Source: Solirubrobacterales bacterium
GTDB taxonomy: Bacteria; Actinomycetota; Thermoleophilia; Solirubrobacterales; 70-9
Reading direction: 5' to 3'
Length of the DNA: 64,000 bases
Assembly (NCBI GenBank): GCA_036780865.1
Contig: DAIQCC010000001.1
Location: forward strand, 60,446-124,445
Shown piece by piece: positions 5,519 through 64,000 of this stretch. The translations under genes and the position numbers were made by a program. The notes under the pieces are model-generated. The model had not been told where the DNA came from and did not search any database. It was given only the letters and a program-made list of their open reading frames with translations. Each line of letters opens with the position of its first letter. The first letter of the stretch is position 1.

Positions 5519-5590
5519 GTGTGTGATTGGTTACTCACCTTGTTCGCCTGAAAAGTGTGTGATTGGTTACTCACTGTCTGCTCCTGAAAA
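5519..5590 (-). promoter_or_regulatory. tandem 36-bp duplication carrying two operator-like 16-mers between the tetR stop and the MFS start
   Basis: Plus-strand units are GTGTGTGATTGGTTACTCAC+16 nt at 5519-5554 and 5555-5590. The 16-mer core GTGATTGGTTACTCAC (5523-5538, 5559-5574) shares 11/16 positions with the palindrome at the tetR promoter. Confidence 0.5.
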
Positions 5591-5603
5591 AAGGCGGTTG
5601 CTG

Positions 5604-18107: not shown

Positions 18108-18116
18108 AGGCACCGC

Positions 18117-18710: not shown

Positions 18711-18744
18711 CCGGAGACCCCGCGAAAGCGAAGCGAGGCCCGGC

Positions 18745-19845: not shown

Positions 19846-19848
19846 CGA

Positions 19849-48188: not shown

Positions 48189-48905
48189 TCAGTCGAGGAG
48201 GTTTCTTTCGTTGGCCCAGCGGGTCAGCTCGTGCCTCGAGGAGAGCTGCAGCTTGCGAAGGGTCGAACTGGTGTGGGCTTCGACCGTCTTGATCGAGATG
48301 CCGAGCCGTCGGGCGATCTCCTTGTACATGTATCCGCGGGCGATCAGTCGCAGCACCTCCTGCTCACGCGGGGTGAGCAGGTCGAGCTCGTCGTCCTCGC
48401 CCTCCGCGGCAGCGCCGGCAAAGGCGTCGAGCACGAAGCCGGCGAGCTGGGGCGAGAAGACCGCATCACCGTGGTGGACCCGCTCGATCGCGTCGATCAG
48501 GTCGGGCCCGGAAATCGTCTTCGTCACGTAGCCGCGGGCTCCGGCCCGGATCACGCTGACGACGTCCTCCGGGTCGTCGCTGACCGAGAGCGCGAGGAAC
48601 CGGGGAGGGGTGGGACCGTCCGGGCCGGAGGCCGCTTCGGCGACCTCGCGGATCACCTCGACCCCGCCTCCGCCCGGCATGTGCACGTCAAGCAGGACCA
48701 CATCCGGCCTGGTCCGCTCGATCAGCAGTACAGCGTCACCGACCCCGTCGGCCTCGCCGACCACGTCGACCCCGGCCACCAGCTCGGATCGGACGCCCGC
48801 CCGGAAGATCGCGTGATCGTCCACGATCGCGACCCGGACCCGGTCGGCCGTCGCGGCCTCACCGGGCTCGCTCTCGGGTTGATTCCTGTCGTTCGCCTCG
48901 CTCAT
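48189..48905 (-). CDS. NarL/LuxR family response regulator
   Basis: VAIVDDH and LLDVHMPG receiver motifs. LTPREQEVLRLIARGYMYKEIARRLGISIKTVEAH HTH. Confidence 0.9.
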   Translation of the reverse strand: MSEANDRNQPESEPGEAATADRVRVAIVDDHAIFRAGVRSELVAGVDVVGEADGVGDAVLLIERTRPDVVLLDVHMPGGGGVEVIREVAEAASGPDGPTPPRFLALSVSDDPEDVVSVIRAGARGYVTKTISGPDLIDAIERVHHGDAVFSPQLAGFVLDAFAGAAAEGEDDELDLLTPREQEVLRLIARGYMYKEIARRLGISIKTVEAHTSSTLRKLQLSSRHELTRWANERNLLD

Positions 48906-50122
48906 CTGTTCTCCATCACGAGTTCCACTTCGGTCCCTTCGCCGGGAACCGAGCGGATCTCGGCCTTTCCTCCATGGGCCTCCATGCGGCCCAGGATCGA
49001 GTCTCTCACCCCTCGCCGGTCATCCGGCACCGACTCCGGGTCGAATCCGGGTCCACGGTCGTGGATGAACACCTCGGTTCGCTTGCGGTCGATCTCGGCG
49101 TAGAGCCGGACCGGCCCGGCGTGACCGGCGTGGCGTGCTGCGTTGTTCATCGCCTCCCGGCTCGCAGCGACCAGGGCAGCGGCGTTCTCGTCCAGTGGCA
49201 GATCGCCTACCGTTACCGCGTCGATCGGAACCTGATGTCGCTCCTCGATCTCCGCCGCGGCTTCCTTCAGGGCCTCGGCCAGCGAGTCGGCGCGGTCGGC
49301 CTCGGTCTTTCCGGACAGCCACTCACGCAACTCCCGCTCCTGGCTACGGGCGAGAGTTGAGATGCGACGGCTGTCCTCCGGGTTCTTCTGGATCAGGGCG
49401 AGGGTCTGCAGCACCGAGTCGTGAAGGTGCGCGGCGACCTCGGCCCGTTCCTCGGAGCGGATGCGCTCTGCCCGTTCCACACTCAGTTCCCGGGCCGAGC
49501 GGGCCCAGAGTGGTGCCGCGACCAGGCCGATCACGATCACGGCGGTGAGCCCGGCAAGGGCGACGTCGCCGCCGGCGCTGAGCGCCCCGTTGATGTAGAG
49601 GAAGAGGACGGCCCCGCCGAGCAGGAGGGCGACTCCTACACCGCCACGAAAGGGTCCCAGGAACAGATGGCGGCGGCTCGCTTCTTTGCCCGAGCCAGTT
49701 CCGGCGTCTTCTCTCGCCTCGCGCTCGCGGACCGTCTCGTTGATCTGTCGCCAGATCAGCGCGACGCCGGCCGCGGCGATGACCAGCGGCCAGACCAGCG
49801 CGTCCGACCACCAAACGCCGGTCTCCCGGAAGATGAAGAGCAGGCCGAGGGTGACGAAGCCGGCCCCGGCGCCGACCGCCCAGGATCCCTTGAACTGGCG
49901 GGGCGGGGCGGTGGTTCGAACGCTGTCCCGGCTGCCCTGCCGTGGCTTCCACCTCCTGCCGCCGGACTCGTCCCCGGCATCCGGCAGCGCCACCCAGAGC
50001 AGCCCGTAGCCGATCGCCGCGACACCGCCGGTGATCACGGTCAGCACGACCGTAATCACCCTGACCAGCGTTGGGTCGACCCTGAGGCGAAGCGCGATGC
50101 CGGAGCAGACTCCGGCAATCAC
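48902..50122 (-). CDS. PspC-domain-containing sensor histidine kinase (HisKA_3 type)
   Basis: N-terminal PspC domain (IAGVCSGIALRLRVDPTLVRV), TM helices, H-box AAHLHDSVLQTL, and a HATPase region. 4-nt overlap with the RR gene. Confidence 0.85.
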   Translation of the reverse strand: MIAGVCSGIALRLRVDPTLVRVITVVLTVITGGVAAIGYGLLWVALPDAGDESGGRRWKPRQGSRDSVRTTAPPRQFKGSWAVGAGAGFVTLGLLFIFRETGVWWSDALVWPLVIAAAGVALIWRQINETVREREAREDAGTGSGKEASRRHLFLGPFRGGVGVALLLGGAVLFLYINGALSAGGDVALAGLTAVIVIGLVAAPLWARSARELSVERAERIRSEERAEVAAHLHDSVLQTLALIQKNPEDSRRISTLARSQERELREWLSGKTEADRADSLAEALKEAAAEIEERHQVPIDAVTVGDLPLDENAAALVAASREAMNNAARHAGHAGPVRLYAEIDRKRTEVFIHDRGPGFDPESVPDDRRGVRDSILGRMEAHGGKAEIRSVPGEGTEVELVMENR

Positions 50123-50166
50123 GCCGCCTTCACGATCGCGCTGCCACCGCTTGTCGGCCGGCTCGC

Positions 50167-51606
50167 TCAGGGGCGACCGAGCACTTTCTTCTTCGGGACC
50201 AGCCTGGCGGCGCAGGCAGCCTCGGCCCTGTCCCTGGCCTGGGCGCTGGTGATGTCATCCGGTTCGAGATCGTTGTCCTCGAAGCTGCCAGCCCTGCCGT
50301 CCTGGCGCCACTGGGTGTTGTCGACGACCTCGAAGGCGCCGAGCTTGATCTCTCCGTCAACGGTCACCACGGGGTTCGCCGCCAATCCGGTTGCCAGGGT
50401 CGAGGGCACATCCTGGGTGATGTCGATTCCGCTGGTCTGGCGGCCCCTGATGTTGATGACGCCGGCCTTCCCGTAGACGTCACCGGCGACGCAGACATCG
50501 TCAGGCACGATCACCGAGGTCAACCCGATGCCACTCCTGACCGGCACTTCCAGCTTCCGCGTGTTCTCGAAATCGAACTTTCGCAGGTCTATGGTCAGGT
50601 TGCCGGCAGCCATCCGGTAGCCGTCGGCCGGGATGTCGGCCCTGGCGACCGGGGACTTCTTGAGTTCACCGTAGCTGCCTTCGACCCGCAGGTCGGCGAT
50701 CGAGACGGCCGCCATCGGCAGTGTCACGGCGACGGCTGCGGTCAGGAGCCAGAGGGAAAGCTGGCGGCGGCCTTTGAGTCCGGCGTAAACCATGGCCCCG
50801 CCGAGAACGATCACCAGACCGGCCATCGGCAGCCCGCCCAGCAGGACGGTGGTTCCGGCCGAGATCACAAAGATGGTGCAGAACACGGTCAGTGCGGCCA
50901 GGCCGATCGCTATCCAGAGCATGATGCGGCCAATCACCGACGGGGCGTCCTGTCCGGACTGTCCGGCGGGGGAGGGCTTGCCGCCACCACCGGTGACTCC
51001 GCTGCTGCCGGCGGACATCTGGCGGGTCTGCATGATCTCGGTGCGACTGAGCTGGGTCGGGGACTCCGCGAAGGTGCCGGTTCCGGCCACCGGCTCAGGA
51101 TCCCCGGCGGGGGGACCGGGCTTTGCGGAAACGGGGGCGCCAGCGGCCGGGGAAGGGGAGGGGGTCGCTGGTGTTTCCGCCCCGGCCTCCCGGCCGAACC
51201 GGCCGGTGGCGAGGAGCCAGATTGAGAGGACCGCCGCAGCCGACCAGAAGAGGATCCCGAAGACGGTTCCGGGCCAGAATCCGAAGAGCCATGAGCTGAA
51301 GGAGCCGGTGCTGGCGGTGACGACGCTGATGATGCCGACGATCACGGCCAGTCCGATCATCATGTTCCTTCGCTTTGGCTCGATCGGCGGCAGTGGCTCG
51401 GACGGGTCACCGTCGACCGGCATCACTGCCAGCAGCGCCAGGTAGACGATCATGCCGAGACCGCCCAGCGCGAGGCTGGCGATGAACGCGATCCGCACGA
51501 AGATCGGGTCGACGCTGAAGCGTTCGGCAAGTCCGGCTGCGACACCGCCGATGTAGCGGTCGCTCCGGGAGCGGGTGAGTTTCTTGGGGGGAGACTGTTC
51601 TGTCAT
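50167..51606 (-). CDS. PspC domain membrane protein
   Basis: RSRSDRYIGGVAAGLAERFSVDPIFVRIAF PspC domain, multiple TM segments, a Pro/Ala/Gly-rich linker, and a beta-rich C-terminal domain. Start set at ATG 51606. Confidence 0.75.
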   Translation of the reverse strand: MTEQSPPKKLTRSRSDRYIGGVAAGLAERFSVDPIFVRIAFIASLALGGLGMIVYLALLAVMPVDGDPSEPLPPIEPKRRNMMIGLAVIVGIISVVTASTGSFSSWLFGFWPGTVFGILFWSAAAVLSIWLLATGRFGREAGAETPATPSPSPAAGAPVSAKPGPPAGDPEPVAGTGTFAESPTQLSRTEIMQTRQMSAGSSGVTGGGGKPSPAGQSGQDAPSVIGRIMLWIAIGLAALTVFCTIFVISAGTTVLLGGLPMAGLVIVLGGAMVYAGLKGRRQLSLWLLTAAVAVTLPMAAVSIADLRVEGSYGELKKSPVARADIPADGYRMAAGNLTIDLRKFDFENTRKLEVPVRSGIGLTSVIVPDDVCVAGDVYGKAGVINIRGRQTSGIDITQDVPSTLATGLAANPVVTVDGEIKLGAFEVVDNTQWRQDGRAGSFEDNDLEPDDITSAQARDRAEAACAARLVPKKKVLGRP

Positions 51607-51716
51607 GTCCACGAGGCTGAAGGCCCGGGCCCGCTTTGTCGATTGGGAATGACCCTTAGATGGCATCAGGGTCGTCCCCGGGTGCTGCGGTGCGATTCCG
51701 CCTACGATCCTTACAG

Positions 51717-52502
51717 GTGACAGGCGCAAACGGGAAAGCAATCGGCACGACCGAGGCCGCCGCAGCCGAGAGGATCACGATCGTCGAGCTGGCCGAACGG
51801 ACCGGGATGACGGTGCGGAACATCCGCGCCCATCAATCCCGCGGCCTGCTTGACCCCCCGGTGGTGGTCGGGCGCACCGGCTACTACGGCCAGGGTCACA
51901 TCGACCGGATCGAGCTGATCCGGGAACTGCAGGAGGAGGGGTTCAACCTCGAGGCGATCCGCCGGATCGTCGCCAGCGCCGGCGAGGATCCCGGGGAACT
52001 TCTGCGTTTCACCCGGGACGTCCGGGCGCCCTACGAGGACGAGCAGCCCGAAGTGATGTCGCTGCGGGAGATAGCCGGTCCCTGGGGCGACGAGAAATTT
52101 GACGAGGAGAGGCTGCGGCGTTCGGAGGCGCTCGGCCTGATGCGTCCGCTCGGTGACGGCCGCTTCGAGGTCCTATCCCCGAAGCTGCTCAGGGCCGGCC
52201 ACGAACTCGCCGCGATCGGGGTGCCGATGGACGACTGCCTCGACACGCTGGAGACCCTGAAGGAACGATCGACCACAGTCGCCGAAGTGTTCATACGGCT
52301 TTTTGACCGGCAGGTCTGGCAGCCCTTCGACGACGCCGGAAGGCCGCGGGACCGCTGGCCCGAGGTGCGCGATTCACTCCGGCGGCTGCGGCCCCTTGCC
52401 TCGGAGGCTTTCATCGCTTCCTTCCAGTTCGCGATGGAAGAAGTCTCCGAGAAGGCGATCTCCGAGGGCATCCGTCGCGATCTCGGCGAAGACGACCGGT
52501 AA
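51717..52502 (+). CDS. MerR family transcriptional regulator
   Basis: ITIVELAERTGMTVRNIRAHQSRGLL HTH. Start is uncertain (GTG 51717 chosen; the track start is 51660). Divergent from the PspC gene. Confidence 0.7.
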   Translation: MTGANGKAIGTTEAAAAERITIVELAERTGMTVRNIRAHQSRGLLDPPVVVGRTGYYGQGHIDRIELIRELQEEGFNLEAIRRIVASAGEDPGELLRFTRDVRAPYEDEQPEVMSLREIAGPWGDEKFDEERLRRSEALGLMRPLGDGRFEVLSPKLLRAGHELAAIGVPMDDCLDTLETLKERSTTVAEVFIRLFDRQVWQPFDDAGRPRDRWPEVRDSLRRLRPLASEAFIASFQFAMEEVSEKAISEGIRRDLGEDDR

Positions 52503-52532: not shown

Positions 52533-52605
<73 letters not shown>

Positions 52606-53665: not shown

Positions 53666-53872
53666 CTACGCCGCGACTTCGTACCCGGCTTCCGCAACTG
53701 CGCGACGGATCGCTGACTCGTCGATGTTCGTGCCGCGAACGGTGAGACGCCCGGCTGAGCGATCGGCCTCGACCGACTCGACGCCGGGAACTTCCGCAAC
53801 CTGCTCGCGCACCGACGACTCGCAATGCCCGCAGGTCATCCCCGTGACGGAGTAAGTCTGTTCTTCTGCCAT
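53666..53872 (-). CDS. copZ: heavy-metal-associated copper chaperone CopZ
   Basis: 68-aa product with GMTCGHC and a ferredoxin-like fold pattern. AGGAGG lies 6 nt upstream of ATG 53872. The track ORF (to 54481) is an upstream read-through artefact. Confidence 0.9.
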   Translation of the reverse strand: MAEEQTYSVTGMTCGHCESSVREQVAEVPGVESVEADRSAGRLTVRGTNIDESAIRRAVAEAGYEVAA

Positions 53873-53920: not shown

Positions 53921-53943
53921 TATAAACCCCCGGGGGGTATATA
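53921..53943. promoter_or_regulatory. CsoR/RicR-type operator-like palindrome upstream of copZ
   Basis: TATAAACCCCC-GGGGGGTATATA is a near-perfect palindrome with C5/G6 tracts flanked by AT. It lies about 50 nt upstream of the copZ start. Confidence 0.5.
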
Positions 53944-54030: not shown

Positions 54031-54052
54031 ATCTCCTACAGTCCGTCGTAAA
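54031..54052 (+). promoter_or_regulatory. box d of the recurring 22-nt motif
   Basis: ATCTCCTACAgtcCGTCGtaaa, located between copZ and the first M23 gene. Confidence 0.55.
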
Positions 54053-54221
54053 TATCGGTACATTGGTTACCGACAAACAAGCCGAGTCCGGTTCCAGCCG
54101 GATCGGGGGACCCGTTTGAGGCCGACCGTGGCCTCTGGGGCGAATCGCAGAAATGCGTAGCGCGAACTCTTTCAGCGCGAGCCCGTCAGCTAACCCCGAA
54201 GGCAGATGAAAGAGAGACGAA

Positions 54222-54785
54222 ATGAAACCCAGCACCGCGTTTTGGCGGCCAGTTCTGACCTTGACCACCACGATTTTGGGAGTGTTCAGCATTTCCGTCG
54301 GCATCGCAGAAGCTTCTTCCACCTCGTCTGGAGGCTTATCCGTCAAGCCGCCAGCATCGGCGGCCCCCACATCGACAAAGGGAGCTTTCCCGGTGAGAGG
54401 ACCCGTAACCTGGGGTGACGGCATCGGGGCGGGGCGAGGCCACCAAGGGCAGGACCTCCTTTCCAGGTGCGCTAGGCCCATAGTCGCGGCGCAGACTGGA
54501 CGGGTGAGACTCGTGAGCTACCAGGCCTCCGGGGCCGGCAACTACGTCGTGGTGCGCGGCACCACCACGAAGTTCGACTACGTCTACATGCACATGCTTC
54601 GTAAGCCTTCCTTGAGGGCGGGTCAAACCGTTCGAGCTGGTCAGCGGATCGGGCTCGTCGGCTCCACGGGCCGATCCAGCGCGTGTCACCTCCATTTCGA
54701 GATGTGGACTAGGCCGGGCTGGTACAAGGGCGGAGACGTGAGCGACCCGGTTCCGTACCTGCGCACGTGGAGAAGATCACGCTGA
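54222..54785 (+). CDS. secreted M23 family metallopeptidase
   Basis: Signal peptide, HQGQD, and GSTGRSSACHLHFEMW (HxH) motifs. Confidence 0.85.
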   Translation: MKPSTAFWRPVLTLTTTILGVFSISVGIAEASSTSSGGLSVKPPASAAPTSTKGAFPVRGPVTWGDGIGAGRGHQGQDLLSRCARPIVAAQTGRVRLVSYQASGAGNYVVVRGTTTKFDYVYMHMLRKPSLRAGQTVRAGQRIGLVGSTGRSSACHLHFEMWTRPGWYKGGDVSDPVPYLRTWRRSR

Positions 54786-54840
54786 ACTACCGACGATTTA
54801 CAGCCCCGATCGTTCTAGATCGCCGGCCGTGGAGGTCGTC

Positions 54841-55194
54841 ATGGCTGTGAGCAGCTATCGGCGTTTCCTGGACCCGGTCAGGGGCTCGCTGATCGCCGGT
54901 GTCGCCGTTCTTTCGATAGTCCTCGCCATCGTCATAGCCCACAGCGGTCCCATAGCGCATCAGATGGGCGACGACTCCATGAACCTGCATGAGGCGATCT
55001 CGGTTTGTCTGGCGATCATGCAAGCCGGCGGCAGCATCATGGTTGGGTTTCTCCTACGCAGGTCTCGTCGGTTGAGGCCTTCGCTCGTACCGTTGGTCCC
55101 AGCCGTCAGGGGTGTGTCTACGCGCACAGCCCGGGCCAACGCGGGAAGCCGCATAAGAGAAGGACCGGCTTGTCAGCAGATTTTCCGGAATTGA
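54841..55194 (+). CDS. small membrane protein (DUF6153-like?), hypothetical
   Basis: GGAGG lies 5 nt upstream of ATG 54841. Two predicted TM helices with His/Met residues. Positioned before DUF305, as small membrane proteins often are in copper loci. Confidence 0.4.
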   Translation: MAVSSYRRFLDPVRGSLIAGVAVLSIVLAIVIAHSGPIAHQMGDDSMNLHEAISVCLAIMQAGGSIMVGFLLRRSRRLRPSLVPLVPAVRGVSTRTARANAGSRIREGPACQQIFRN

Positions 55195-55279
55195 GATTCG
55201 CCCGCGAGCCAGAAGGCTCGCGCAACCGATTTGCGTGGTCCCCGCCGACCACGCCTCGACTCAATTCAAGGAGAAGAAA

Positions 55280-55936
55280 ATGACAAAGAAAACTCTGGCT
55301 GCCGGGATCATCGTCATCCTCGTGGTCGTTGGCGCCTACGTGCTCATCAGTGGATCAAGCGATTCCGGCGATTCCGACGACGCCGATGTCGCGTTCGCGG
55401 CGCAAATGGTTCCCCACCATGAGGCAGCGATCGAGATGGCAAAGCTGGCGCAACAAAAGGCTGAGCATCCCGAGATCACCCAATTGGCGAACAACATCGT
55501 GGAGACCCAGAGCTCTGAGATCGAGACCCTGAACTCGATCCACGATCGCCTCACGAAAGGATCTGACTCAGGCGACGAGAGCATGGGAATGAGCGACTCA
55601 ATGATGGGCATGGACATGGACATGGCCGCACTCGAGACCGCCGATCCCTTCGATCGGGAGTTCATCGACCAGATGATTCCTCACCATCAGGGCGCGATTC
55701 GGATGGCGTATGCCGTGCTGGAGAACGGTGAAGATCAGGAGACCAAGGATCTCGCCAATGCGGTCATTGCGGCTCAGTCGAAAGAGATCGCTCAGATGAA
55801 TAGCTGGCGCACCGACTGGTACGGGTCGCCCTCCCCAGCGGGAGGAGTGCCGACGGGTCCTACCGGCATGGAGTCCACTGACTCGGGTGACATGGACTCG
55901 GGTGACATGGGTTCGATGGAGGGCATGGACCACTAG
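55280..55936 (+). CDS. DUF305 domain protein with Met/Asp-rich segments
   Basis: Two DUF305 half-domains (QMVPHHEAAIEMA and QMIPHHQGAIRMA). AAGGAG SD before ATG 55280. Also MGMSDSMMGMDMDM and a DSGDMDSGDMGSMEGMDH tail. Confidence 0.85.
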   Translation: MTKKTLAAGIIVILVVVGAYVLISGSSDSGDSDDADVAFAAQMVPHHEAAIEMAKLAQQKAEHPEITQLANNIVETQSSEIETLNSIHDRLTKGSDSGDESMGMSDSMMGMDMDMAALETADPFDREFIDQMIPHHQGAIRMAYAVLENGEDQETKDLANAVIAAQSKEIAQMNSWRTDWYGSPSPAGGVPTGPTGMESTDSGDMDSGDMGSMEGMDH

Positions 55937-55958
55937 CTCGGAACCAGATGTGGGCTTG

Positions 55959-55988
55959 TCTCCCGTCCGCCGGCCGGCGGACGGGAGA
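55959..55988 (+). terminator. perfect 15-bp-stem palindrome after the DUF305 gene
   Basis: TCTCCCGTCCGCCGG/CCGGCGGACGGGAGA, with no U-tract. Confidence 0.5.
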
Positions 55989-56089
55989 AGGCACCACACG
56001 GGCTCGTTCTCCTAGGCGACTCGATCTGGGTGAAACCTAGCCACGGTGGATCGGCGGCGGTCTAACCTGGAGCGCTGTAGGCTCTTGCC

Positions 56090-56482
56090 GTGGCCCGTGA
56101 ACCCGCCGTTCAGCTCCAAGGAGAGCTTCAGTTGGAAGTGATGCGGGCGCTTTGGCGTCTCGACCGCCCGGTCGGGGTTGAGGAAGTGCGAAGCGAGCTT
56201 CCGGCCCGTCAGCAAGGTGCCTACACCACGATCCAAACCATCCTCACTCGTCTCGCCGAGCGAGGATTGGTGGGACGGAAGCGCGAAGGCAAGGCAATCT
56301 CCTACAGGGCGAAGGTCTCAGAGGCCGACTACTACTCGCGGTCTCTTCGGGAGACGCTTGCATTGGCTTCCGACGACGCGCGACGGGCCGCGCTCGCGCA
56401 GCTTGTGGGGGACCTGGACCCGGGAGAACTCGACGAGATCGAAGCACTCGCGCGCGAGGTAGCCACGCGGAGAGACCGATGA
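56090..56482 (+). CDS. BlaI/MecI/CopY family transcriptional repressor
   Basis: LGELQLEVMRALW...YTTIQTILTRLAERGLV winged-helix pattern. No C-terminal CxCxxxxCxC copper motif. ATGA overlap with the next gene. Confidence 0.85.
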   Translation: MAREPAVQLQGELQLEVMRALWRLDRPVGVEEVRSELPARQQGAYTTIQTILTRLAERGLVGRKREGKAISYRAKVSEADYYSRSLRETLALASDDARRAALAQLVGDLDPGELDEIEALAREVATRRDR

Positions 56483-57450
56483 CCGGCATCGTCGTTGTCC
56501 TGATAGGTCTATTGGTAGCCGGCACCGCAGTCTGTTACTTGCTGCCGCGCGCCAGCTTGGCTCCCATGACCGGGGCGTCCCTGTGGCTGGCGGTGCTTGG
56601 CTTAAGAGCGGTTCTCGTCTTGCTCACCGCCCTGATAGCAGTCTTCTACCTGCCAGCTACAGAGCTCTTTCAGATACTGACCCATTGGTGCATCCATGCC
56701 GTACTGCCTTTCATAACCACTCACCTAGGCTTCTCCGGGCACGGAGTTGGGGACGCGGCAAGCGCGCTCCCAGGCCTTGTCGTCGGTGTCTCCGCTATGT
56801 GGGCCGCTTTCGGGTTGGGACGGGCCGCGAGAGCTATGCGTCGCTGGGTGAAACGCAGCTCCTTGGGAGTGGGACCCGGTGAGAGCGTCATCATCGGAGG
56901 CGAAAAGGTCCTGGTCGCCGCTGCTGGCATACGTAGTCCAAAGGTCGTCGTCTCCACAGGCGCCCTGGCTCGACTCGATGAGGACGAGCTTGCCGCAAGT
57001 CTCGCGCACGAACGCGGCCACATCGCCCGGCGGCATCCCTACCTGGCCCTTGCCGGCGATCTCGCCTACGCGGTGGCCCGTCCGGTGCCTGGTTCCAAGG
57101 ACGCCCTCCAGCGGCTGAGGTTCTGCTTGGAACGCGATGCGGACGAGTACGCGGTGAACTGCACCAGCGATCCGATCGCCCTTGCCAGTGCTATCTGCAA
57201 GGCCGCGGCCGACTCGCCCGCGCCCAATGTCGCGCTGGCTACGCTCGCTGGTTCGGGTGCCCCGGCTCGGCTGCGGCTGCTTCTCGACCGTCCAGCCGCC
57301 CGCCCGAAGACGTGGGCGGAGATCATGGGCCGCGGCGTCGTGGTGCTGATGGTCGCCGGCACTCTTCTCGCGCTGGGGATGACACCGTCTCTGGCAAGAG
57401 CTGGCGTCGCCACCCTGGAGGCCAGTCCTCCGGCCCACTCCTGCGAGTAG
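56479..57450 (+). CDS. M56 (BlaR1/MecR1-like) membrane zinc metalloprotease without a penicillin-binding sensor domain
   Basis: HERGH (HExxH) after 4 TM helices. The 323-aa protein ends after one more TM segment. Confidence 0.8.
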   Translation: MTGIVVVLIGLLVAGTAVCYLLPRASLAPMTGASLWLAVLGLRAVLVLLTALIAVFYLPATELFQILTHWCIHAVLPFITTHLGFSGHGVGDAASALPGLVVGVSAMWAAFGLGRAARAMRRWVKRSSLGVGPGESVIIGGEKVLVAAAGIRSPKVVVSTGALARLDEDELAASLAHERGHIARRHPYLALAGDLAYAVARPVPGSKDALQRLRFCLERDADEYAVNCTSDPIALASAICKAAADSPAPNVALATLAGSGAPARLRLLLDRPAARPKTWAEIMGRGVVVLMVAGTLLALGMTPSLARAGVATLEASPPAHSCE

Positions 57451-57492
57451 CTTCGAAAGGTCGAAGCCGAGTCGGTCGTGATCCTCGCGACC

Positions 57493-57514
57493 AACTCCTA
57501 CATGCTGTAGTATT
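57493..57514 (+). promoter_or_regulatory. box a of the recurring 22-nt motif
   Basis: AACTCCTACAtgcTGTAGtatt, 25 nt upstream of the 57539 start. Confidence 0.6.
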
Positions 57515-57538
57515 GGCGAGCCTAAGACGGACGACTCA

Positions 57539-58129
57539 TTGCCAGCCATCGCCCCCCAAACGATCACCGGGCAACTAACGCCCCCTTCGCTTCTGAGCGC
57601 GCGCTTTCTCGTCAGCGCTGTCGTCGGGATAGTCCTAGCGTCGGTGTTGATCGGGGTGCCGACCGATGTCCTCCCCAATCCGTGGTTCACGCGTATGACC
57701 CCCATCCGCGTATTCGACTACCTGTTCTGGGTTACGAACAGCGTGCTGACGGGTGTCCTGCTAGCGACCTATCTCCTGCCCCGTCGCACTCAGTCCAACG
57801 TCGCGACCGCGAGCGCCGGCACTGGATTGTTGACCGTGTTCGCGGTCGGCTGCCCTATCTGCAACAAGCTCGTTGTTTCCTTGCTAGGGATCTCGGGGGC
57901 TCTCAACTACTTTGCTCCGATACAGCCACTGCTCGGCATCGCCGGTTTGGTTACGGCATCTATCGCCATTGGGGTTCGTCTACGTGGGGCCAGGGGCGCC
58001 TGCGCGGTTGTTCCGGCAAGTCGATCCGTCCGGGACGGCGGTATCCAAGGGACGGAAGCCGACGATCACTTGGATGATCCGGGACCGAGCACCCAAGGGC
58101 TTGGTGAGGAATCAGGGCCGAGAATGTGA
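57539..58129 (+). CDS. integral membrane protein with an intramembrane CPxC motif
   Basis: 4 predicted TM helices and GCPICNKLVVSLLG. TTG start. The hydrophilic C-terminal tail may be over-extended. Confidence 0.5.
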   Translation: MPAIAPQTITGQLTPPSLLSARFLVSAVVGIVLASVLIGVPTDVLPNPWFTRMTPIRVFDYLFWVTNSVLTGVLLATYLLPRRTQSNVATASAGTGLLTVFAVGCPICNKLVVSLLGISGALNYFAPIQPLLGIAGLVTASIAIGVRLRGARGACAVVPASRSVRDGGIQGTEADDHLDDPGPSTQGLGEESGPRM

Positions 58130-58145
58130 CCGCGGTGCCTTCCTG

Positions 58146-58802
58146 ATGACCGGCACCAACTACATCCCCGCTCTCCGCTTCCGCGCCCTCACCGGCCTCT
58201 ACGACCCGCTGGTCCGTTTGACGACCCGCGAGCGCAGATTCAAGCGGCAGCTCCTCGAAAGGGCCGGCGTGCGTCCTGGTGAGCGCGTCTTGGATCTCGG
58301 GTGCGGGACCGGAACGCTCGCGCTCGCCGCCAAACGGGCACAGCCCGAAGCCATTGTGATCGGCCTGGACGCCGATCCGGCGATTCTCGACCGGGCTCGC
58401 CGCAAGTCCGAGGAAGCGGGAGCAGAAATCACCTTCGCGGACGGGGTTTCCACCGAACTGCCCTTCGCCGACGCCTCCTTCGACATCGTGCTCTCGACTC
58501 TCTTCTTCCATCACCTCGAGTCCGATTCGAAGAGGACGACTGCCAATGAACTGGCGCGCGTCCTCACGCCATCCGGACGACTGCACGTCGCCGATTGGGG
58601 ACCACCCCAGGACCCACTGATGGCCTTCCTCTTTCTCGGCATCCGACTGCTCGACGGCTTCGAGCCGACCCGCGAGAACGCCGCTGGTGGCCTGCCGTCG
58701 CTCTTCTCGAAGGCCGGCTTCGCCGAGTTCGGACCCCGTGAACAGCTTCGCACCCCGTTTGGCAGTCTCGCCTTCTACTCGGGCTCTCGGGCAAGTGAAT
58801 GA
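58146..58802 (+). CDS. class I SAM-dependent methyltransferase
   Basis: VLDLGCGTG motif I and FDIVLSTLFFHHL. Start set at ATG 58146. Confidence 0.85.
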   Translation: MTGTNYIPALRFRALTGLYDPLVRLTTRERRFKRQLLERAGVRPGERVLDLGCGTGTLALAAKRAQPEAIVIGLDADPAILDRARRKSEEAGAEITFADGVSTELPFADASFDIVLSTLFFHHLESDSKRTTANELARVLTPSGRLHVADWGPPQDPLMAFLFLGIRLLDGFEPTRENAAGGLPSLFSKAGFAEFGPREQLRTPFGSLAFYSGSRASE

Positions 58803-58828
58803 CCTGTATGCGATGGGTCGTAGATCCC

Positions 58829-58850
58829 AACTCCTACATCCTGTAGGAAT
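58829..58850 (+). promoter_or_regulatory. box b of the recurring 22-nt motif (best palindrome)
   Basis: AACTCCTACAtccTGTAGGAat. TCCTACA-N3-TGTAGGA is a perfect 7+3+7 palindrome. Confidence 0.65.
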
Positions 58851-58878
58851 GTCACTCGAAAGGGAGAACAAGGAGCCG

Positions 58879-59034
58879 ATGAAAGCTCTCGCGACAGACC
58901 GCCGCGCCAACTCTCTTTCGCGAGTGGCCAGAGCTTGGATAGGTCGACTCCCGGACGGCGCTTTCTATCCGGGTCTGCTGCTCGGCTGCACCGCGGCGAT
59001 TATGGTGCTCTATCTATTCGGAGTAGTCGTGTGA
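58879..59034 (+). CDS. small single-TM protein, hypothetical
   Basis: 51 codons (MKALATDRR...LLLGCTAAIMVLYLFGVVV). AAGGAG is just upstream. An alternative ATG at 58849 overlaps box b. Confidence 0.3.
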   Translation: MKALATDRRANSLSRVARAWIGRLPDGAFYPGLLLGCTAAIMVLYLFGVVV

Positions 59035-59336
59035 TCTTCCGGCGTCGGCGGCAACGAGACGAAGTGACGAATCCCATTCCGGGCCGGGCGCGCGTTCAGT
59101 CAGCGAAGCACGGGCTGAGAGTGCTACTCCAGCTGCTGTCAGACGGAAGCGAGGCAGAGCAGATCATCAAGGTGATCGGCGATCAATACGAAGTAGTGCG
59201 TAATGGCGACGTGGTCGAGGTTATTGTCGATGATGTCCGTTTCCCCGATGAGGCGGTTGTGCGCCTCGCGTTGCTCTTGGACGACATCGAGCCAGATTGG
59301 CAGAGCGTGATCTCGTGGCCGAGGACAAAGTCTTGA
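59031..59336 (+). CDS. hypothetical protein
   Basis: GTG 59031 overlaps the upstream stop (GTGTGA). 101 codons with an acidic C-terminal half. No family recognised. Confidence 0.3.
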   Translation: MIFRRRRQRDEVTNPIPGRARVQSAKHGLRVLLQLLSDGSEAEQIIKVIGDQYEVVRNGDVVEVIVDDVRFPDEAVVRLALLLDDIEPDWQSVISWPRTKS

Positions 59337-59384
59337 GGTTCGAGAATCTGTCCGAATCAAGCCTTGGTGGCTCAATGAGACTCG

Positions 59385-60218
59385 ATGTCCGTAGGAGGTC
59401 ATGAAGTGGCATCCATTCCCAGCCCCGCGTCAAGCGGATTCTCGTTGGGTCCGTTCGAGGTACACGCCTACGGGCTGATGTACGTGGTCGCGGTCGCCGT
59501 GGCGATGCTGATGACGGTGCGTCGCTGGGAGGCTCAAGGCGGCTCCCGGGAGACCGTCTATGACGTTGTCATATGGGCTTTCCCCGCTGGTTTGATCGGC
59601 GGTCGCCTCTACTTCGTGTTGACGAGTTGGGGCGAAGTGCCGCAACATTGGTGGGGTCCGTTCGCGGTATGGGAAGGGGGTCTTGGCATATGGGGTGGCA
59701 TCGCGGCCGGAACGGCGGTTGGGATCTGGCGGCTCAAGCGCTCTGGGACTCCCGTCGCCGCTTTCATGGACGCGGCCGCCCCGGCCCTCCTCGTCGCCCA
59801 GTCGATCGGCAGAGTGGGCAACTACTTCAACCAAGAGCTGTTCGGTGGGCCAACGAGCCTGCCGTGGGGTGTTGAGATCTCCCCCGAACATCGTCCCGAA
59901 GGCTACGCCACGGACGCGGTCTTTCATCCAACTTTTTTCTACGAGATCGTCTGGAACCTATGCCTCGCCGCCTTCTTGGTATGGCTAGGCAATCACCGCC
60001 GCATCCGTCCCCCAGGGCTCTTCGCTCTCTATGTGACCGGATATTCGGCATTCCGCATCTTCGAGGAGTTGTTGAGGATAGATCCGGCCAATCACATCTT
60101 GGGCATGCGACTCAACTTCTTCGTCGCTTGCCTCTTGACGATCACGGGCGCGATCTGGTTCGCGATGACCCAGGGGTGGCTCCAAGGGCGAGAGCGAGAC
60201 GGTCCGCCACCTGGATAG
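59385..60218 (+). CDS. lgt: prolipoprotein diacylglyceryl transferase
   Basis: IPSP..F.LGPFEVHAYGLMYV start, GGRLYFV, WEGGLGIWGG, GRVGNYFNQELFG, and 7 TM segments. Confidence 0.85.
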   Translation: MSVGGHEVASIPSPASSGFSLGPFEVHAYGLMYVVAVAVAMLMTVRRWEAQGGSRETVYDVVIWAFPAGLIGGRLYFVLTSWGEVPQHWWGPFAVWEGGLGIWGGIAAGTAVGIWRLKRSGTPVAAFMDAAAPALLVAQSIGRVGNYFNQELFGGPTSLPWGVEISPEHRPEGYATDAVFHPTFFYEIVWNLCLAAFLVWLGNHRRIRPPGLFALYVTGYSAFRIFEELLRIDPANHILGMRLNFFVACLLTITGAIWFAMTQGWLQGRERDGPPPG

Positions 60219-60300
60219 CGGCGTTCGCCTCGTCCTCGCCGCATGTCTAGTCCGCAATCGAAGTTTCATCGGCGCGCCTTGGAACTCGCACTCGAGCAGT

Positions 60301-60322
60301 TGCTACTACGGTCTGTAGGACT
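60301..60322 (-). promoter_or_regulatory. box f of the recurring motif (inverted orientation)
   Basis: The minus strand reads AGTCCTACAgacCGTAGtagca. The box lies about 21 nt upstream of the second M23 gene. Confidence 0.5.
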
Positions 60323-60343
60323 GGCGCAATTCGCGTCGCCCTC

Positions 60344-61564
60344 TTGACCGTGATCCCCTCCTCAACCGACAACGCCCTCGCGAAGCCGGCGACGCGCCTG
60401 GCAGCGCTCGTTCTCTTCGCCCTCGCTCTCGCTGGCATCACCGCGGGAACCGCGATCGGGAAGAGCGCCGAGGAAAAGCTCGAAGCCGTGGAAAAGAAGA
60501 TCGACACGGCCCGGGACAGGGAGGGAGTGTTGACTACCGAGATCGAGGCGATGGGCGAGAAGATCGCCTCCCTCGAAGGTCAGGTGACCGAACTGCGAGG
60601 CCAGGAAGCCGCCGCGGAAGCTGAACTCGCGGCGAAGCAGACCGAACTCGACCAAGCGGTCGTCAAGCTCGAAGAGGCGATCGACGAACTAGAGGTCATT
60701 CGAGCCCGGCTGCGGCGGGCGCTCAACATCCTCCGCGACCGTCTGGTCGCCATCTACATGTCGGGCACGCCCGACATCGCCTCCATCGTCCTGGCTGCCT
60801 CTGACTACGGCGACATGGTGTCCGTGGCTGAATACGCGGAACAGATCCAACGTAGCGACGAGGTGGTGGTTGACCGAGTGCGAACGCTTCGCGAAGATGC
60901 TGAGAACCTAGTTGAGATCCGGCGCGACGCGAAATCCACGATAGAAGCCGCTCGCGATCAGATCGCCGCCGAAGAGAATCGCCTTGAGGTCACACGGACC
61001 GCGTTGGAGAGCAGGGAAGGCGCCCTTGTCGCGGCCCGTACCAACCGTCAATCGACCTTGGAAGGCGTGCAGGGGGGCATTCACAAGTACGAAGACATCG
61101 CCGCGGATCTCCGAGCGAAGATCGAAAGGGAAGTCGCCGAGGCAACCACCAGCGCCGCACTCCCGACCGGACCCGAGCCAGCACCTAGCGACGCGGGGTT
61201 CATTTGGCCGGTCGAAGGTACCTTCACCTCGCCCTTCGGTGCTCGATGGGGGAGCATGCACGAAGGCATCGACATCGCCGCGCCCGGAGGCACCCCCATC
61301 CGCGCGGCCGCCTCGGGAACCGTGGTCCTGATGCAGTCCGAAGCCGAGAGCGGCGGCTATGGAAACTACACATGCGTCGATCACGGTGGAGGTCTAGCCA
61401 CCTGCTACGCCCACCAGTCGGGTTTCGCCACCTCGACCGGGGCAACGGTAAGCCAGGGCGACGTGATCGGCTACGTCGGCAACACAGGGCACAGCTTCGG
61501 GGACCATCTCCATTTCGAGGTGCGCATCGACGGTGCAGCCGTCGATCCGATGGGCTACCTCTAG
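60344..61564 (+). CDS. secreted coiled-coil + M23 peptidase (EnvC/peptidoglycan DD-metalloendopeptidase-like)
   Basis: Signal/TM segment, a heptad-rich region of about 230 aa, then HEGIDIAAP and GNTGHSFGDHLHFEV. Confidence 0.85.
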   Translation: MTVIPSSTDNALAKPATRLAALVLFALALAGITAGTAIGKSAEEKLEAVEKKIDTARDREGVLTTEIEAMGEKIASLEGQVTELRGQEAAAEAELAAKQTELDQAVVKLEEAIDELEVIRARLRRALNILRDRLVAIYMSGTPDIASIVLAASDYGDMVSVAEYAEQIQRSDEVVVDRVRTLREDAENLVEIRRDAKSTIEAARDQIAAEENRLEVTRTALESREGALVAARTNRQSTLEGVQGGIHKYEDIAADLRAKIEREVAEATTSAALPTGPEPAPSDAGFIWPVEGTFTSPFGARWGSMHEGIDIAAPGGTPIRAAASGTVVLMQSEAESGGYGNYTCVDHGGGLATCYAHQSGFATSTGATVSQGDVIGYVGNTGHSFGDHLHFEVRIDGAAVDPMGYL

Positions 61565-61599
61565 CCGCGCCCCCACGCGTTTGGACATCGCGGCGCCGC

Positions 61600-61621
61600 A
61601 ACTCCTACACTGTGTCGTATA
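61600..61621 (+). promoter_or_regulatory. box c of the recurring 22-nt motif
   Basis: AACTCCTACActgTGTCGtata, 46 nt upstream of the ATPase start. Confidence 0.6.
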
Positions 61622-61667: not shown

Positions 61668-64000
61668 TTGAGTCAGACGGCACCGGCAGACAGTCCGGCT
61701 TCCGCGGTCCTTGAGGCGGGCGGCATGTTGCGAGCCTCGGAGAAGTCCGTGGTCGAAACAGCTTTGCGACATCGGCCAGGTGTGATCGAGGTCGAAGCCA
61801 ATCCGGTCGCCCAGACAGCGACCGTGACTTACGATCCGAAACTCACGTCGGTCGAAGAGCTGAGCAGGTGGATCACAGAATGCGGGTATCACTGCGCGGG
61901 CCAGTCGGTTCCCGACCATGTGTGTGACCCGATGCTCGGGCCGGCCGATTCGTCCTCCCACGAACACACCGAGATGCGAGGCACACCCGATGAAGTGATG
62001 GGTCACGGTGGTCACGGCGAGATGTCGATGGCCGCGATGGTCGCCGACATGCGCAACCGCTTCCTGGTCGCCGCGTTCTTCTCGATTCCGATCCTGCTTT
62101 GGTCGCCGATCGGCCGCGACGTGTTCGGCTTTGAGGCTCCGGTTCCGTTCGGCCTGCGCGAGGACGTATTCACGTTGATCCTCAGCCTGCCGGTGATCTT
62201 CTACTCCTGCTCGATCTTCTTTACCGGAGCGGTCCGGGCACTGCGCGCCCGGACGCTCGACATGATGGTGCTGGTCGCGGTCGCGGTCGGGGCGGGTTGG
62301 ACTTATTCGTTGGTCGTCACCCTCACCGGCGGTGGTGAAGTCTTCTATGAGGCGGCGACCGTTCTCGCCGCCTTCGTCCTGCTCGGTCATTGGTTCGAGA
62401 TGCGAGCCAGGGGCGGCGCCAACGACGCGATACGCACCCTGCTGGATCTCGCACCTCCCAAGGCGCTTGTGGTTCGCGACGGAGATACGGTGGAGATCCC
62501 GACCAGCGAAGTGCAAGTGGGCGACGTGCTCCTGGTGCGTCCCGGTTCGAAGATCGCAGTAGACGGGATCGTCGAGGACGGAGAAAGCGAGGTTGACGAG
62601 TCCACCGTCACCGGCGAGAGTCTGCCCATCCACAAGGGGCCAGGCTCGGAGGTCATCGGCGCCACCATCAACACCAACGGGACACTCCGGGTGCGGGCCA
62701 CGAAAGTCGGGTCCGATACCGCCCTGGCGCAGATCGTCAAGCTGGTCCAAGAAGCCCAGAACTCCAAGGCCCCAGGACAGAAACTCGCTGATAGAGCCGC
62801 GTTCTGGCTCGTTTTCGTCGCTCTCATCGGTGGTGCCGCGACTTTTGCCGCCTGGGCGATCTTCAGTTCAGAGCCGATCTCGACCGCGGTCCTCTTCGCG
62901 ATCACGGTGGTCGTCATCACATGCCCGGACGCATTGGGGCTCGCGACACCGACAGCGATCATGGTCGGTAGCGGCCTCGGAGCGAAACGCGGGATTCTCT
63001 TCAAGAACGCGATCGCACTCGAGACTTCGGCCCGGATCGACGTGGTGGTCATGGACAAGACGGGCACGCTTACCAAGGGCGAGCCGGAAGTGACCGATGT
63101 CTTCGTCTATGGGTTTGATCGTGGCGAGCTGTTGAGTCTCGTCGCGGCCGTTGAACGCTCCTCGGAACATCCTCTGGCTGAGGCCATCGTCCACCAATCC
63201 GAATCCGACGAAGTGCCCCGGTTGGATGCCGAGAGCTTCGAGAACGTCCCTGGGCACGGTGCGGTGGCGACGGTTCAGGGACGCAAGGTGCTGGTCGGAA
63301 ACAGGCGACTGATGGAGGACAACGGCGTGGAGCTTGGTTCCCTGACAGCGCGCCGCGAAGAGTTGGCGGCCAGCGGACGCACAGTCGTGGTCGTCGCCGT
63401 TGACGGACGTGCCGCTGGCTTGATCGGGATCGCTGACGCGCCACGCGAGACATCTGAGGAAGCCATCGGAGCTCTACATGAGGCGGGCGTCGAGGTGGTC
63501 ATGTTGAGCGGCGACAACCAGGCGACCGCCGAACGGATCGCCGGACAGCTAGGCATCGACACCGTGATCGCGGAAGTCTTGCCGGGAGACAAGGCAGCGA
63601 AGATCTCGGAACTACAAGCCGATGGGCGGAAGGTCGCGATGGTCGGCGACGGGGTCAACGACGCGCCGGCTCTCGCCCAGGCGGACCTCGGAATCGCGAT
63701 CGGTGCCGGCACGGATGTCGCGATCGAGACGGCGGATGTCGTTCTGATGCGCTCCGATCCACTCGACGTGCCAACGGCCCTCGCGATAGGACGGGCGACT
63801 CTGAGAAAAATGCATCAGAACCTGGGCTGGGCGGTCGGCTACAACTCCGTGGCGCTGCCGATCGCGGCCGGAGTTTTCGAACCTTCGCTCGGCCTCATGC
63901 TTCGACCCGAGATCGCGGCTCTTTCGATGTCGGGTTCGAGCTTCATCGTTGCCGTCAATGCGCTGACTTTGAAAGGTGCGCGACTACCGGGAACCTCGAA
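61668..64000 (+). CDS. P1B-type heavy-metal ATPase, CopB-like, 3' end outside the window
   Basis: Not in the ORF track because no stop occurs before the window end; I translated it by hand from TTG 61668 (AAGGAA SD 7 nt upstream). Motifs: DKTGTLT, SEHPLA, GDGVNDAPAL, and TM7/8 NLGWAVGYNSVALP and MSGSSFIVAVN. There is a His/Met-rich stretch before DMRNRF. The TM6 motif reads CPD. Confidence 0.9.
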   Translation, partial: MSQTAPADSPASAVLEAGGMLRASEKSVVETALRHRPGVIEVEANPVAQTATVTYDPKLTSVEELSRWITECGYHCAGQSVPDHVCDPMLGPADSSSHEHTEMRGTPDEVMGHGGHGEMSMAAMVADMRNRFLVAAFFSIPILLWSPIGRDVFGFEAPVPFGLREDVFTLILSLPVIFYSCSIFFTGAVRALRARTLDMMVLVAVAVGAGWTYSLVVTLTGGGEVFYEAATVLAAFVLLGHWFEMRARGGANDAIRTLLDLAPPKALVVRDGDTVEIPTSEVQVGDVLLVRPGSKIAVDGIVEDGESEVDESTVTGESLPIHKGPGSEVIGATINTNGTLRVRATKVGSDTALAQIVKLVQEAQNSKAPGQKLADRAAFWLVFVALIGGAATFAAWAIFSSEPISTAVLFAITVVVITCPDALGLATPTAIMVGSGLGAKRGILFKNAIALETSARIDVVVMDKTGTLTKGEPEVTDVFVYGFDRGELLSLVAAVERSSEHPLAEAIVHQSESDEVPRLDAESFENVPGHGAVATVQGRKVLVGNRRLMEDNGVELGSLTARREELAASGRTVVVVAVDGRAAGLIGIADAPRETSEEAIGALHEAGVEVVMLSGDNQATAERIAGQLGIDTVIAEVLPGDKAAKISELQADGRKVAMVGDGVNDAPALAQADLGIAIGAGTDVAIETADVVLMRSDPLDVPTALAIGRATLRKMHQNLGWAVGYNSVALPIAAGVFEPSLGLMLRPEIAALSMSGSSFIVAVNALTLKGARLPGTS

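Follow-up and report, generated by a model that had tools for sequence, protein, structure and literature searches.

A stretch of 64,000 nucleotides from a Solirubrobacterales bacterium (assembly GCA_036780865.1, contig DAIQCC010000001.1, positions 60,446 to 124,445 of the forward strand; this whole stretch is hereafter called the window) contains five copies of a short palindromic box. The boxes, considered here as putative operators, are placed on both sides of an operon encoding a BlaI/MecI/CopY-family repressor and a membrane metalloprotease, and they precede genes for copper handling, peptidoglycan hydrolysis and lipoprotein maturation. The boxes and the two regulatory genes are as follows:

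54034-54050, plus strand: box d, TCCTACAGTCCGTCGTA, in the gap between the divergent copZ and M23a genes, 171 nt from ATG 54222 (M23a) and 161 nt from the copZ start at 53872
56090-56482, plus strand: BlaI/MecI/CopY-family winged-helix repressor of 130 aa (Pfam Penicillinase_R, PF03965, E 1.7e-23, residues 11-121)
56479-57450, plus strand: membrane zinc metalloprotease of M48/M56 (BlaR1) type, 323 aa, with HERGH at residues 177-181
57496-57512, plus strand: box a, TCCTACATGCTGTAGTA, 26 nt from TTG 57539, with the CxxC-membrane/methyltransferase operon downstream
58832-58848, no strand assigned: box b, TCCTACATCCTGTAGGA, a perfect 7+3+7 palindrome identical to the family consensus, 30 nt from ATG 58879 (orf51-orf101-lgt)
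60304-60320, minus strand: box f, TCCTACAGACCGTAGTA, 23 nt from TTG 60344 (coiled-coil M23 gene)
61603-61619, plus strand: box c, TCCTACACTGTGTCGTA, 48 nt from TTG 61668 (P1B ATPase)

All five boxes conform to the 17-mer pattern TCCTACA-N3-YGTMGKA, whose five matches in the 64-kb window all fall within one genomic island, with a chance expectation of about 0.004 per window by arithmetic; likewise, the 14-mer CCTACANNNYGTMG, searched with zero mismatches, was found in the five boxes alone. The spacer was 3 nt long in 5/5 boxes. These sites had been listed in a first-pass annotation of this DNA, and all of them are present as written there. The open reading frame (ORF) map bore out that they are intergenic, the distances to the start codon for four of them (26, 30, 23 and 48 nt) lie within the 20-50 nt range that had been given, the 170 nt reported between box d and the first M23 gene is 171 nt, and box b is indeed a perfect palindrome. 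Box f had been aligned one base off, and fits the common pattern once aligned on CCTACA. In the same annotation, the 8-mer CTCCTACA was counted five times in 7.6 kb, including a copy inside the blaI-like coding sequence. This count stands. In the remaining 52 kb, where none had been noticed, a sixth copy is located at 49633, in coding sequence. The six occurrences compare with 0.48 expected in the window, and none of 100 shuffles reached six; the copy inside the blaI-like coding sequence, at 56299, has two mismatches to the full box. A scan for the sigma-70 consensus gave nothing above chance.

The closest homologs of the repressor are encoded in Solirubrobacterales and Thermoleophilia metagenome-assembled genomes (MAGs) and are named BlaI/MecI/CopY family. 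Comparison of its profile with the PDB gave as best match entry 2g9w from M. tuberculosis (E 1e-16), which we take to be Rv1846c BlaI, followed by B. licheniformis BlaI, L. lactis CopR and S. aureus MecI/BlaI, with 1p6r, 1okr and 1sd4 among the entries matched. No cysteine was found either in the 130-residue protein or in its 17 aligned homologs. A copper switch of the CopY type was ruled out, there being no C-terminal CxC (CxCx4CxC), in agreement with the lack of a Cys-rich switch pointed out previously. The cleavage site of S. aureus BlaI (N101/F102) had no reliable mapping onto the repressor.

The start of the protease gene overlaps the stop codon of the repressor gene (ATGA, 56479-56482), and both genes are translationally coupled. 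Homologs of the protease are named 'M56 family metallopeptidase' at NCBI. An AlphaFold model obtained with 20 homologs (predicted local distance difference test, pLDDT, 80; predicted template modelling score, pTM, 0.77) displayed helices at residues 2-21, 29-57, 87-127 and 278-300, and its top PDB matches in Foldseek were five cryo-EM entries of S. aureus BlaR1 (8exs, 8ext, 8exq, 8exr and 8exp), with probability 1.0, an E value of 4e-4 and 311 columns. The chain ends about 20 residues past the last transmembrane (TM) helix, with no PF00905 domain, and the protein therefore lacks the penicillin-binding domain. Conservation was analysed in an alignment together with 68 homologs from the related loci described below. 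In the loop between TM2 and TM3 (residues 58-92), T68, W70, C71, P77, H82, G84, H88 and G91 were invariant, and H69 and H73 were near-invariant. The penultimate residue of the protein, C322, was also invariant, and C240, in the protease domain, near-invariant. In BlaR1, the loop EL1 (residues 56-96) faces outward and lies in the sensor active site, and its displacement shifts helix 3 and the protease domain (PMC9834060). By analogy, the TM2-TM3 loop of the window protease would face the outside of the cell.

The boxes were then followed in 80 loci that carry the regulator in other species, mostly Thermoleophilia. These loci were retrieved via the regulator alignment from a collection with one genome per species, and they comprise up to 10 kb at each side and 1.15 Mb in total. 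With up to one mismatch allowed, matches to TCCTACANNNYGTMGKA were present at 243 distinct positions, in comparison with about one expected from order-1 Markov simulations. The family consensus is the symmetric TCCTACA-N3-TGTAGGA, with free spacer bases and conservation ending at 17 bp, in a logo that is partly circular because it was built from matches to the pattern. The 'AAC' prefix and the 'GTA' end initially considered part of the box do not belong to this consensus and are sub-clade features. Regarding the spacer, 76 core matches had 3 nt, vs at most one match each for spacers of 1, 2, 4 and 5 nt (one for 2 nt). Only 17% of the boxes were located in called genes, though called genes account for 75% of the bases. 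Over the kilobase upstream of the regulator gene, the density of boxes was 0.83 per kb; it was 0.58 per kb directly past the protease gene and 0.03-0.1 per kb at a distance of 8-10 kb. The gap right after the protease gene, which is the site of box a in the window, was the second commonest box position. Spacer strictness, gene avoidance and density near the regulator are three independent facts, none of them circular.

A box was present within 250 nt upstream of the regulator gene in 40 of the 80 loci, and this arrangement in half of them indicates autoregulation. The protease gene was the sole gene accompanying the regulator in most loci (68/80), and no other regulator family recurred across them. 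In L071, L074 and L078, serine and glutamate replace the Cys and His residues of the protease loop, and neither box nor target genes were found within 10 kb; these three loci count as one observation because they probably represent a single clade. Footprinting in related genomes, suggested in the first-pass annotation as a check, thus revealed boxes in large excess, mostly intergenic and densest beside the regulator-protease operon. Altogether, the enrichment, the density peaks on both flanks, the strict spacer and the recurrence of the same target families after rearrangement (see below) agree with the original proposal, and we consider it very probable from these sequence comparisons that the boxes are operators of the BlaI-family repressor encoded at 56090.

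Two assemblies of the collection gave two loci each: JAUXSD01 (L024 and L034) and JBPPNC01 (L030 and L047) contain two separate regulator-protease pairs per assembly, with boxes near each. Locus L073 (CAMCUD010000015.1) belongs to a MAG labelled Bifidobacterium breve; its contig is probably mis-binned, because its regulator is 62% identical to the Thermoleophilia protein and it has four boxes. In L080, from Acidimicrobiaceae, whose regulator homolog has 39% identity, another palindrome, ACTACTACAG-AC-CTGTAGTAGT (TACA-N4-TGTA), was found upstream of the regulator at around 5590-5615, and three copies of ACCTACACCTCGTCGGG are situated further upstream, at 221, 571 and 920 (about 350 bp apart).

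To define the genes downstream of the boxes, the best ORF starting within approximately 220 nt at either side of each box was taken, the products were clustered by BLAST with the window proteins, and cluster representatives were annotated. This procedure was adopted because callers based on GC3 and on codon usage both missed several island genes. One large ORF cluster near the boxes was discarded as a shadow ORF antisense to the protease gene. The box-preceded groups were the following:

M23 peptidases: 40 cases in 33 loci
S-adenosylmethionine (SAM)-dependent methyltransferase: 35 cases in 21 loci
regulator (blaI): 32 cases in 30 loci
Peptidase_C39_2 proteins: 27 cases in 15 loci
CxxC membrane protein: 17 cases in 17 loci
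P1B ATPase or CopZ: 15 cases in 14 loci
DUF305: 7 cases in 6 loci
multicopper oxidase: 7 cases in 5 loci
PG_binding_1 proteins: 7 cases in 6 loci
lgt: 6 cases in 5 loci

Smaller groups included class B penicillin-binding proteins (PBP; 3 loci), DsbA, AhpC/thioredoxin-like proteins, a YHS-domain cyclase, LemA and SHOCT. Of 63 loci, 26 had a box before a copper gene, 41 had one before a cell-wall gene and 20 had both, with regulator identities of 43-79%. Locus L081, on the same contig as L004, has the same gene set in another order according to independent gene calls, and its boxes are in the gaps upstream of the ATPase, the divergent M23/blaI, the CxxC-methyltransferase, the small-ORF-lgt and the M23-DUF305 units; its copZ has a CsoR-type site in place of a box. 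Since the gene order differs and the boxes are kept, the architecture of the window represents one arrangement of a conserved, probably mobile module.

The remaining features of the island in the window are the following:

52533-52605, plus strand: tRNA-Thr, the probable left edge of the island
53666-53872, minus strand: copZ, copper chaperone (CGHC; NCBIfam CopZ families)
53922-53942, no strand assigned: CsoR-type operator, reading ATATACCCCCCGGGGGTTTAT on the minus strand, 50 nt upstream of copZ; palindrome ATACCCC-N2-3-GGGGTAT
54222-54785, plus strand: M23a, small secreted M23 peptidase with HxxxD and HxH motifs
54829-55194, plus strand: small ORF for a membrane protein, without match to any family, located between M23a and the DUF305 gene
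55235-55936, plus strand: DUF305/CopM copper-binding protein (Pfam DUF305, E 8e-58; NCBIfam CopM, E 1e-38)
57539-58129, plus strand: CxxC membrane protein with four helices, of an unnamed family
58146-58802, plus strand: class I SAM-dependent methyltransferase (UbiE/ArsM-like)
58879-59336, plus strand: two small overlapping ORFs (51 and 101 aa) upstream of lgt, function unassigned
59385-60218, plus strand: Lgt, prolipoprotein diacylglyceryl transferase (Pfam LGT, E 1.6e-59)
60344-61564, plus strand: M23b, coiled-coil M23 peptidase with HxxxD and HxH intact
61668-64000, plus strand, continuing beyond the window: P1B-type ATPase with CPD in place of CPC in TM4

Box d is more likely the operator of the M23a-TM-DUF305 operon than that of copZ, because copZ has its own CsoR-type operator. 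The true start of the DUF305 gene is probably ATG 55281. A perfect, GC-rich hairpin with a 12-bp stem and no T-tract (CTCCCGTCCGCC GGCC GGCGGACGGGAG) follows this gene at 55960-55987, and may attenuate read-through into the blaI-protease operon. The family of the CxxC membrane protein has 1287 homologs, with the invariant motifs PNPWFTRM and GCPxCNKL...YFxPIQP and a third Cys past the last helix; no Pfam or NCBIfam model matched this protein, and its AlphaFold model was poor (pLDDT 59.5, pTM 0.36). The methyltransferase gene is located directly 3' of the CxxC membrane gene in the window, in L081 and in L082, and homologs of the 101-aa ORF were also found downstream of a box in four related loci. 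In the P1B ATPase, TM4 contains TCPD, the copper-pump motifs YN and MSGSS (MxxSS) are kept, and an HMA-like domain devoid of Cys is combined with a His/Met-rich N-terminus. The CPD subtype was observed in 11 of 12 full-length box-preceded ATPases, that of the window included (loci L001-L004, L007, L028, L030, L035, L036 and L050); the only mention of this motif found in the literature describes it as novel in three rhizobial ATPases (PMC5552934).

The island comprises about 10 kb next to the tRNA gene, with its right end past the window, and the GC content changes from about 0.67 to about 0.62 past tRNA-Thr. In L081, which is the closest relative, genes for a phage-type integrase, an N6/N4 DNA methylase and a relaxase were found at the island end (16246-20393). 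These data suggest that the island is an integrative mobile element. No homolog of the protease was found among PLSDB plasmids. Outside the island, at 48902-52502, there are two genes with PspC domains, whose products carry in one case a histidine-kinase-type ATPase domain and in the other a LiaF-like C-terminus, and a gene for a MerR-family regulator; no box precedes any of these three genes, and the group, beside the tRNA gene, looks like a cell-envelope stress module.

The CsoR-type element upstream of copZ matches the Streptomyces CsoR consensus ATATACCCCTNAGGGGTATAT (PMC3902906). Such an element was also found just upstream of copZ or of the ATPase gene in L004 (8458), L009 (14243), L012 (5218), L028 (4981) and L030 (4977), and the palindrome is also present at 5862 in L042, 158 in L060, 15298 in L067 and 12032 in L069. 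No csoR gene was detected in the window by the RLxRIxGQ signature. The CsoR operator at copZ indicates that cytoplasmic Cu(I) has its own sensor, so that an extracytoplasmic input would be natural for a membrane protease.

The explanation that best accounts for these data, and that we regard as probable, is that the boxes are operators of the repressor, that the protease brings about its release, and that the system responds to an extracytoplasmic copper or thiol signal. According to this model, the 7-3-7 palindrome TCCTACA-N3-TGTAGGA would be the binding site for a dimer of the cysteine-free repressor, which would keep five transcription units of the island repressed: M23a-TM-DUF305/CopM, possibly reading on into blaI-protease; the CxxC membrane protein with the methyltransferase; orf51-orf101-lgt; M23b; and the CPD-type P1B ATPase. 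The co-translated metalloprotease would degrade the repressor, as in BlaR1/BlaI and in the PetP/PetR pair of cyanobacteria, and proteolytic release is likely by homology. Sensing would take place through the invariant Cys/His loop between TM2 and TM3 (THWCxH...THLGFSGH), at the position of EL1 in BlaR1, with a second element provided by the invariant Cys on a short C-terminal tail that is presumably extracellular. The most likely signal would be extracytoplasmic copper or the thiol damage resulting from it; taken by itself, a role of copper or of copper-type thiol stress as the signal appears to us slightly favoured. Cytoplasmic Cu(I) would be read separately, through the CsoR-type operators at copZ and the ATPase.

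The output of the system would combine the removal of copper (ATPase and CopM, with the multicopper oxidase in relatives) with measures that repair or circumvent those envelope steps which are poisoned by copper, namely acylation by Lgt, the remodelling of peptidoglycan and the formation of disulfides. Work in E. coli has shown that the +1 Cys of prolipoproteins is modified by copper, with a block at the Lgt step, that LD-transpeptidases are inhibited, and that copper also gives rise to mis-oxidised disulfides, for which DsbC is needed (PMC6593411). Counterparts of these steps are present in the regulon: lgt; the M23 and C39-like hydrolases and a PBP; and DsbA and thioredoxin-like proteins. 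A more specific reading, put forward here as a tentative possibility, is that a sensorless BlaR1-type protease has swapped the penicillin-binding domain for a built-in extracytoplasmic metal/thiol site, composed of the invariant Cys/His loop together with the C-terminal Cys, and thereby switches on a mobile envelope copper-stress module, made up of the CPD ATPase, CopM and multicopper oxidase plus accessory Lgt, endopeptidases, thiol oxidoreductases and the CxxC-membrane/methyltransferase pair. This last pair could represent a new detoxification activity.

Several points weigh against the proposed model of protease-controlled operators with a copper or thiol signal. As for the protease, Pfam scores it as M48 and not M56. 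Sequence searches of the PDB with this protein, both single and profile-based, gave weak HtpX/M48 matches alone and no BlaR1; the TM-score of the model against BlaR1 was just 0.42, which may be due in part to the comparison of a monomer model with chains of a domain-swapped BlaR1 dimer; and the pLDDT of the candidate sensor loop was below 50, its topology being argued from analogy with BlaR1. With regard to the related loci, the co-occurrence of regulator and boxes is partly by construction because the loci were picked through the regulator, and the assignment of downstream genes rests on a crude ORF procedure. A reverse scan of metagenome contigs with the perfect palindrome matched at least 120 contigs, and among those listed, which were mostly low-GC, unrelated sequences, three had a BlaI homolog nearby, in a search swamped by chance matches because 14 specified bases are too few for that collection. 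Furthermore, repressor-box binding, proteolytic cleavage or release, loop topology and signal identity are all links that we infer. The first of these, and the fact that the blaI gene of the window has no full box directly upstream but only the half-site TGTAGG at 56077-56082, leave some room for the boxes to serve a different, unlinked transcription factor, with the BlaI-like protein binding elsewhere. We consider this very unlikely, as boxes are densest at the two flanks of the blaI-protease operon, the loci share no other recurrent regulator family, the half-sites fit the TACA/TGTA type of the BlaI family, and the distant homologs with another protease loop have no box. Non-regulatory repeats of a mobile island (recombination or attachment sites, or miniature repeats) or a chance cluster would fit a location adjoining a tRNA gene and the integrase and relaxase genes that flank the island of the relative L081, but hardly a conservation that stops at 17 bp with free spacer bases, nor boxes shortly before start codons also in species with reshuffled gene order, nor the chance expectation given above, and such an origin seems to us scarcely credible.

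The identity of the signal deserves a more serious alternative, in which the same repressor and protease respond to an envelope or peptidoglycan cue unrelated to copper, the copper genes being island cargo controlled mainly by CsoR and secondarily by the box. Among the targets, none are commoner than the hydrolases of peptidoglycan (M23 in 33 loci and C39-like ones in 15), and cell-wall genes outnumber copper genes (41 vs 26 of 63 loci). In addition, since copper genes also carry CsoR operators, before copZ or the ATPase gene, both in the window and in five further loci, copper need not be the signal of the box system. The sensorless CenIR pair likewise controls the hydrolase Cwp6 with no known signal (PMC13492132). 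On the other hand, genes for the ATPase, DUF305, multicopper oxidase and a YHS-domain protein are directly boxed in 26 loci over a range of 43-79% regulator identity, the boxed ATPases belong to one conserved CPD subtype, the sensor loop is made of classic metal and thiol ligands, and the homologous cyanobacterial design senses copper. In view of these observations, we hold the envelope cue to be unlikely, and a copper or thiol signal acting through the protease on the repressor is the explanation that we retain.

The locus thus offers a precise operator, a multi-operon regulon kept in dozens of species and a candidate sensor site, and cultured carriers exist, namely Svornostia abyssi J379 (locus L036) and Patulibacter spp.; complete genomes with the system include OY969812.1, CP088295.1 (Svornostia abyssi) and CP108400.1. 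Should copper prove to be the signal, the sensing of copper by way of a protease, as in PetRP, would reach beyond cyanobacteria and from cofactor choice to metal resistance, and bacteria would co-regulate copper efflux with the envelope processes that copper poisons in E. coli. If the tentative reading of a metal/thiol site replacing the penicillin-binding domain is true, the system would be the first example of a copper-resistance regulon gated by a protease, and in a monoderm phylum it would tie copper toxicity directly, at the genetic level, to the biogenesis of lipoproteins and of the cell wall. The apparent mobility of the module is relevant to the spread of metal resistance in soils.

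Among known systems, the closest one is PetR/PetP of Synechocystis sp. PCC 6803 and other cyanobacteria, in which copper leads to PetP-dependent degradation of PetR (bioRxiv 10.1101/2020.07.31.226407; commentary PMC7896320). The core of the PetR operator is GACA-N3-TGTC, and two conserved Met in the TM2-TM3 loop of PetP have been proposed as copper ligands (bioRxiv 10.1101/2020.07.31.226407). Judging by its published description, this system resembles that of the window in a BlaI/CopY-family factor without the copper cysteines of CopY, in an overlapping next gene that encodes a four-TM M48/M56 protease without penicillin-binding domain, in an inverted-repeat operator with a 3-nt spacer, and in candidate ligands in the TM2-TM3 loop. 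It differs in the half-site, which is TACA here vs GACA, and in the loop, which here spans some 35 residues and has invariant Cys/His, alongside a Cys at the C-terminus, vs 14 residues and two Met in PetP. The regulons are also different: the one described here extends over many operons and covers the efflux and binding of copper, hydrolases of peptidoglycan, lgt and a methyltransferase, and that of PetR is a four-gene plastocyanin/cytochrome c6 switch. The present system belongs to Actinomycetota and lies on a mobile island, and its copper dependence is a proposal. Neither in the window nor in the related loci did the genes preceded by boxes include one of petE/petJ type. To our knowledge, copper sensing by a BlaI-like repressor and a membrane protease is known so far in cyanobacteria only.

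A sensorless BlaIR pair, CenI/CenR, is present in Clostridioides difficile, with a regulon that includes the peptidoglycan hydrolase Cwp6 and envelope proteins; the same source indicates that about 6% of M56 proteins have a transpeptidase domain and about 94% do not, and that their signals and regulons are largely unknown (PMC13492132). CenR differs from the window protease in its long unstructured C-terminal tail and its Firmicute host, and the source gives no known signal and reports no copper genes in the regulon (PMC13492132). We know of no operator defined for CenIR. The combination that the first-pass annotation did not know as described therefore has precedents, in PetR/PetP for copper and the sensorless protease and in CenIR for the peptidoglycan hydrolase. 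With BlaI/BlaR1 and MecI/MecR1 of S. aureus the system shares the Penicillinase_R fold, the membrane gluzincin fold, a loop at the EL1 position and TACA/TGTA half-sites, and differs from them in having no penicillin-binding sensor domain, no beta-lactamase or PBP2a target and a 3-nt spacer, the sequence similarity of the protease to BlaR1 being below detection. Among the island genes scanned (53.6-64 kb), no beta-lactamase or PBP2a gene was found.

The M. tuberculosis pair BlaI/BlaR (Rv1846c/Rv1845c) is actinobacterial, as is that of the window. The targets reported for its BlaI are blaC, ATP-synthase-linked genes and cell-division genes, and we know of no copper regulon for it. Its BlaR likewise has no domain that binds beta-lactams, according to the report cited for CenIR (PMC13492132). 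CopY/CopR of Firmicutes is similar in repressor family, in very similar half-sites (KACA / YGTM; box CTACA/YGTM) and in the control of a copper ATPase. The CopY/CopR operator, RNYKACANNYGTMRNY, has a 2-nt spacer (PMC7253601), and the Cu(I) sensor of CopY is a CxC motif at its C-terminus (PMC11672702). The differences are thus the CxCx4CxC of CopY vs no cysteine here, the lack of a protease partner in CopY, and the 2-nt cop box (KACANNTGTA) vs 3 nt here, a contrast in spacing between TACA/TGTA half-sites that had been proposed at the outset and that held in the window boxes and in the related matches. CsoR controls copZ and the copper ATPase in Actinobacteria, and an operator of its type is also present before the window copZ. 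However, it belongs to a protein family unrelated to BlaI, with a G-tract operator unrelated to the five boxes, and is a co-regulator here and not the explanation of the boxes. In a literature search, no paper came up that connects BlaI/BlaR with DUF305 or with resistance to copper in Actinobacteria. In comparison with PetRP, CenIR and BlaIR, what is new in this system is the operator sequence, the candidate sensor site, a larger and different regulon, the phylum and the mobile context.

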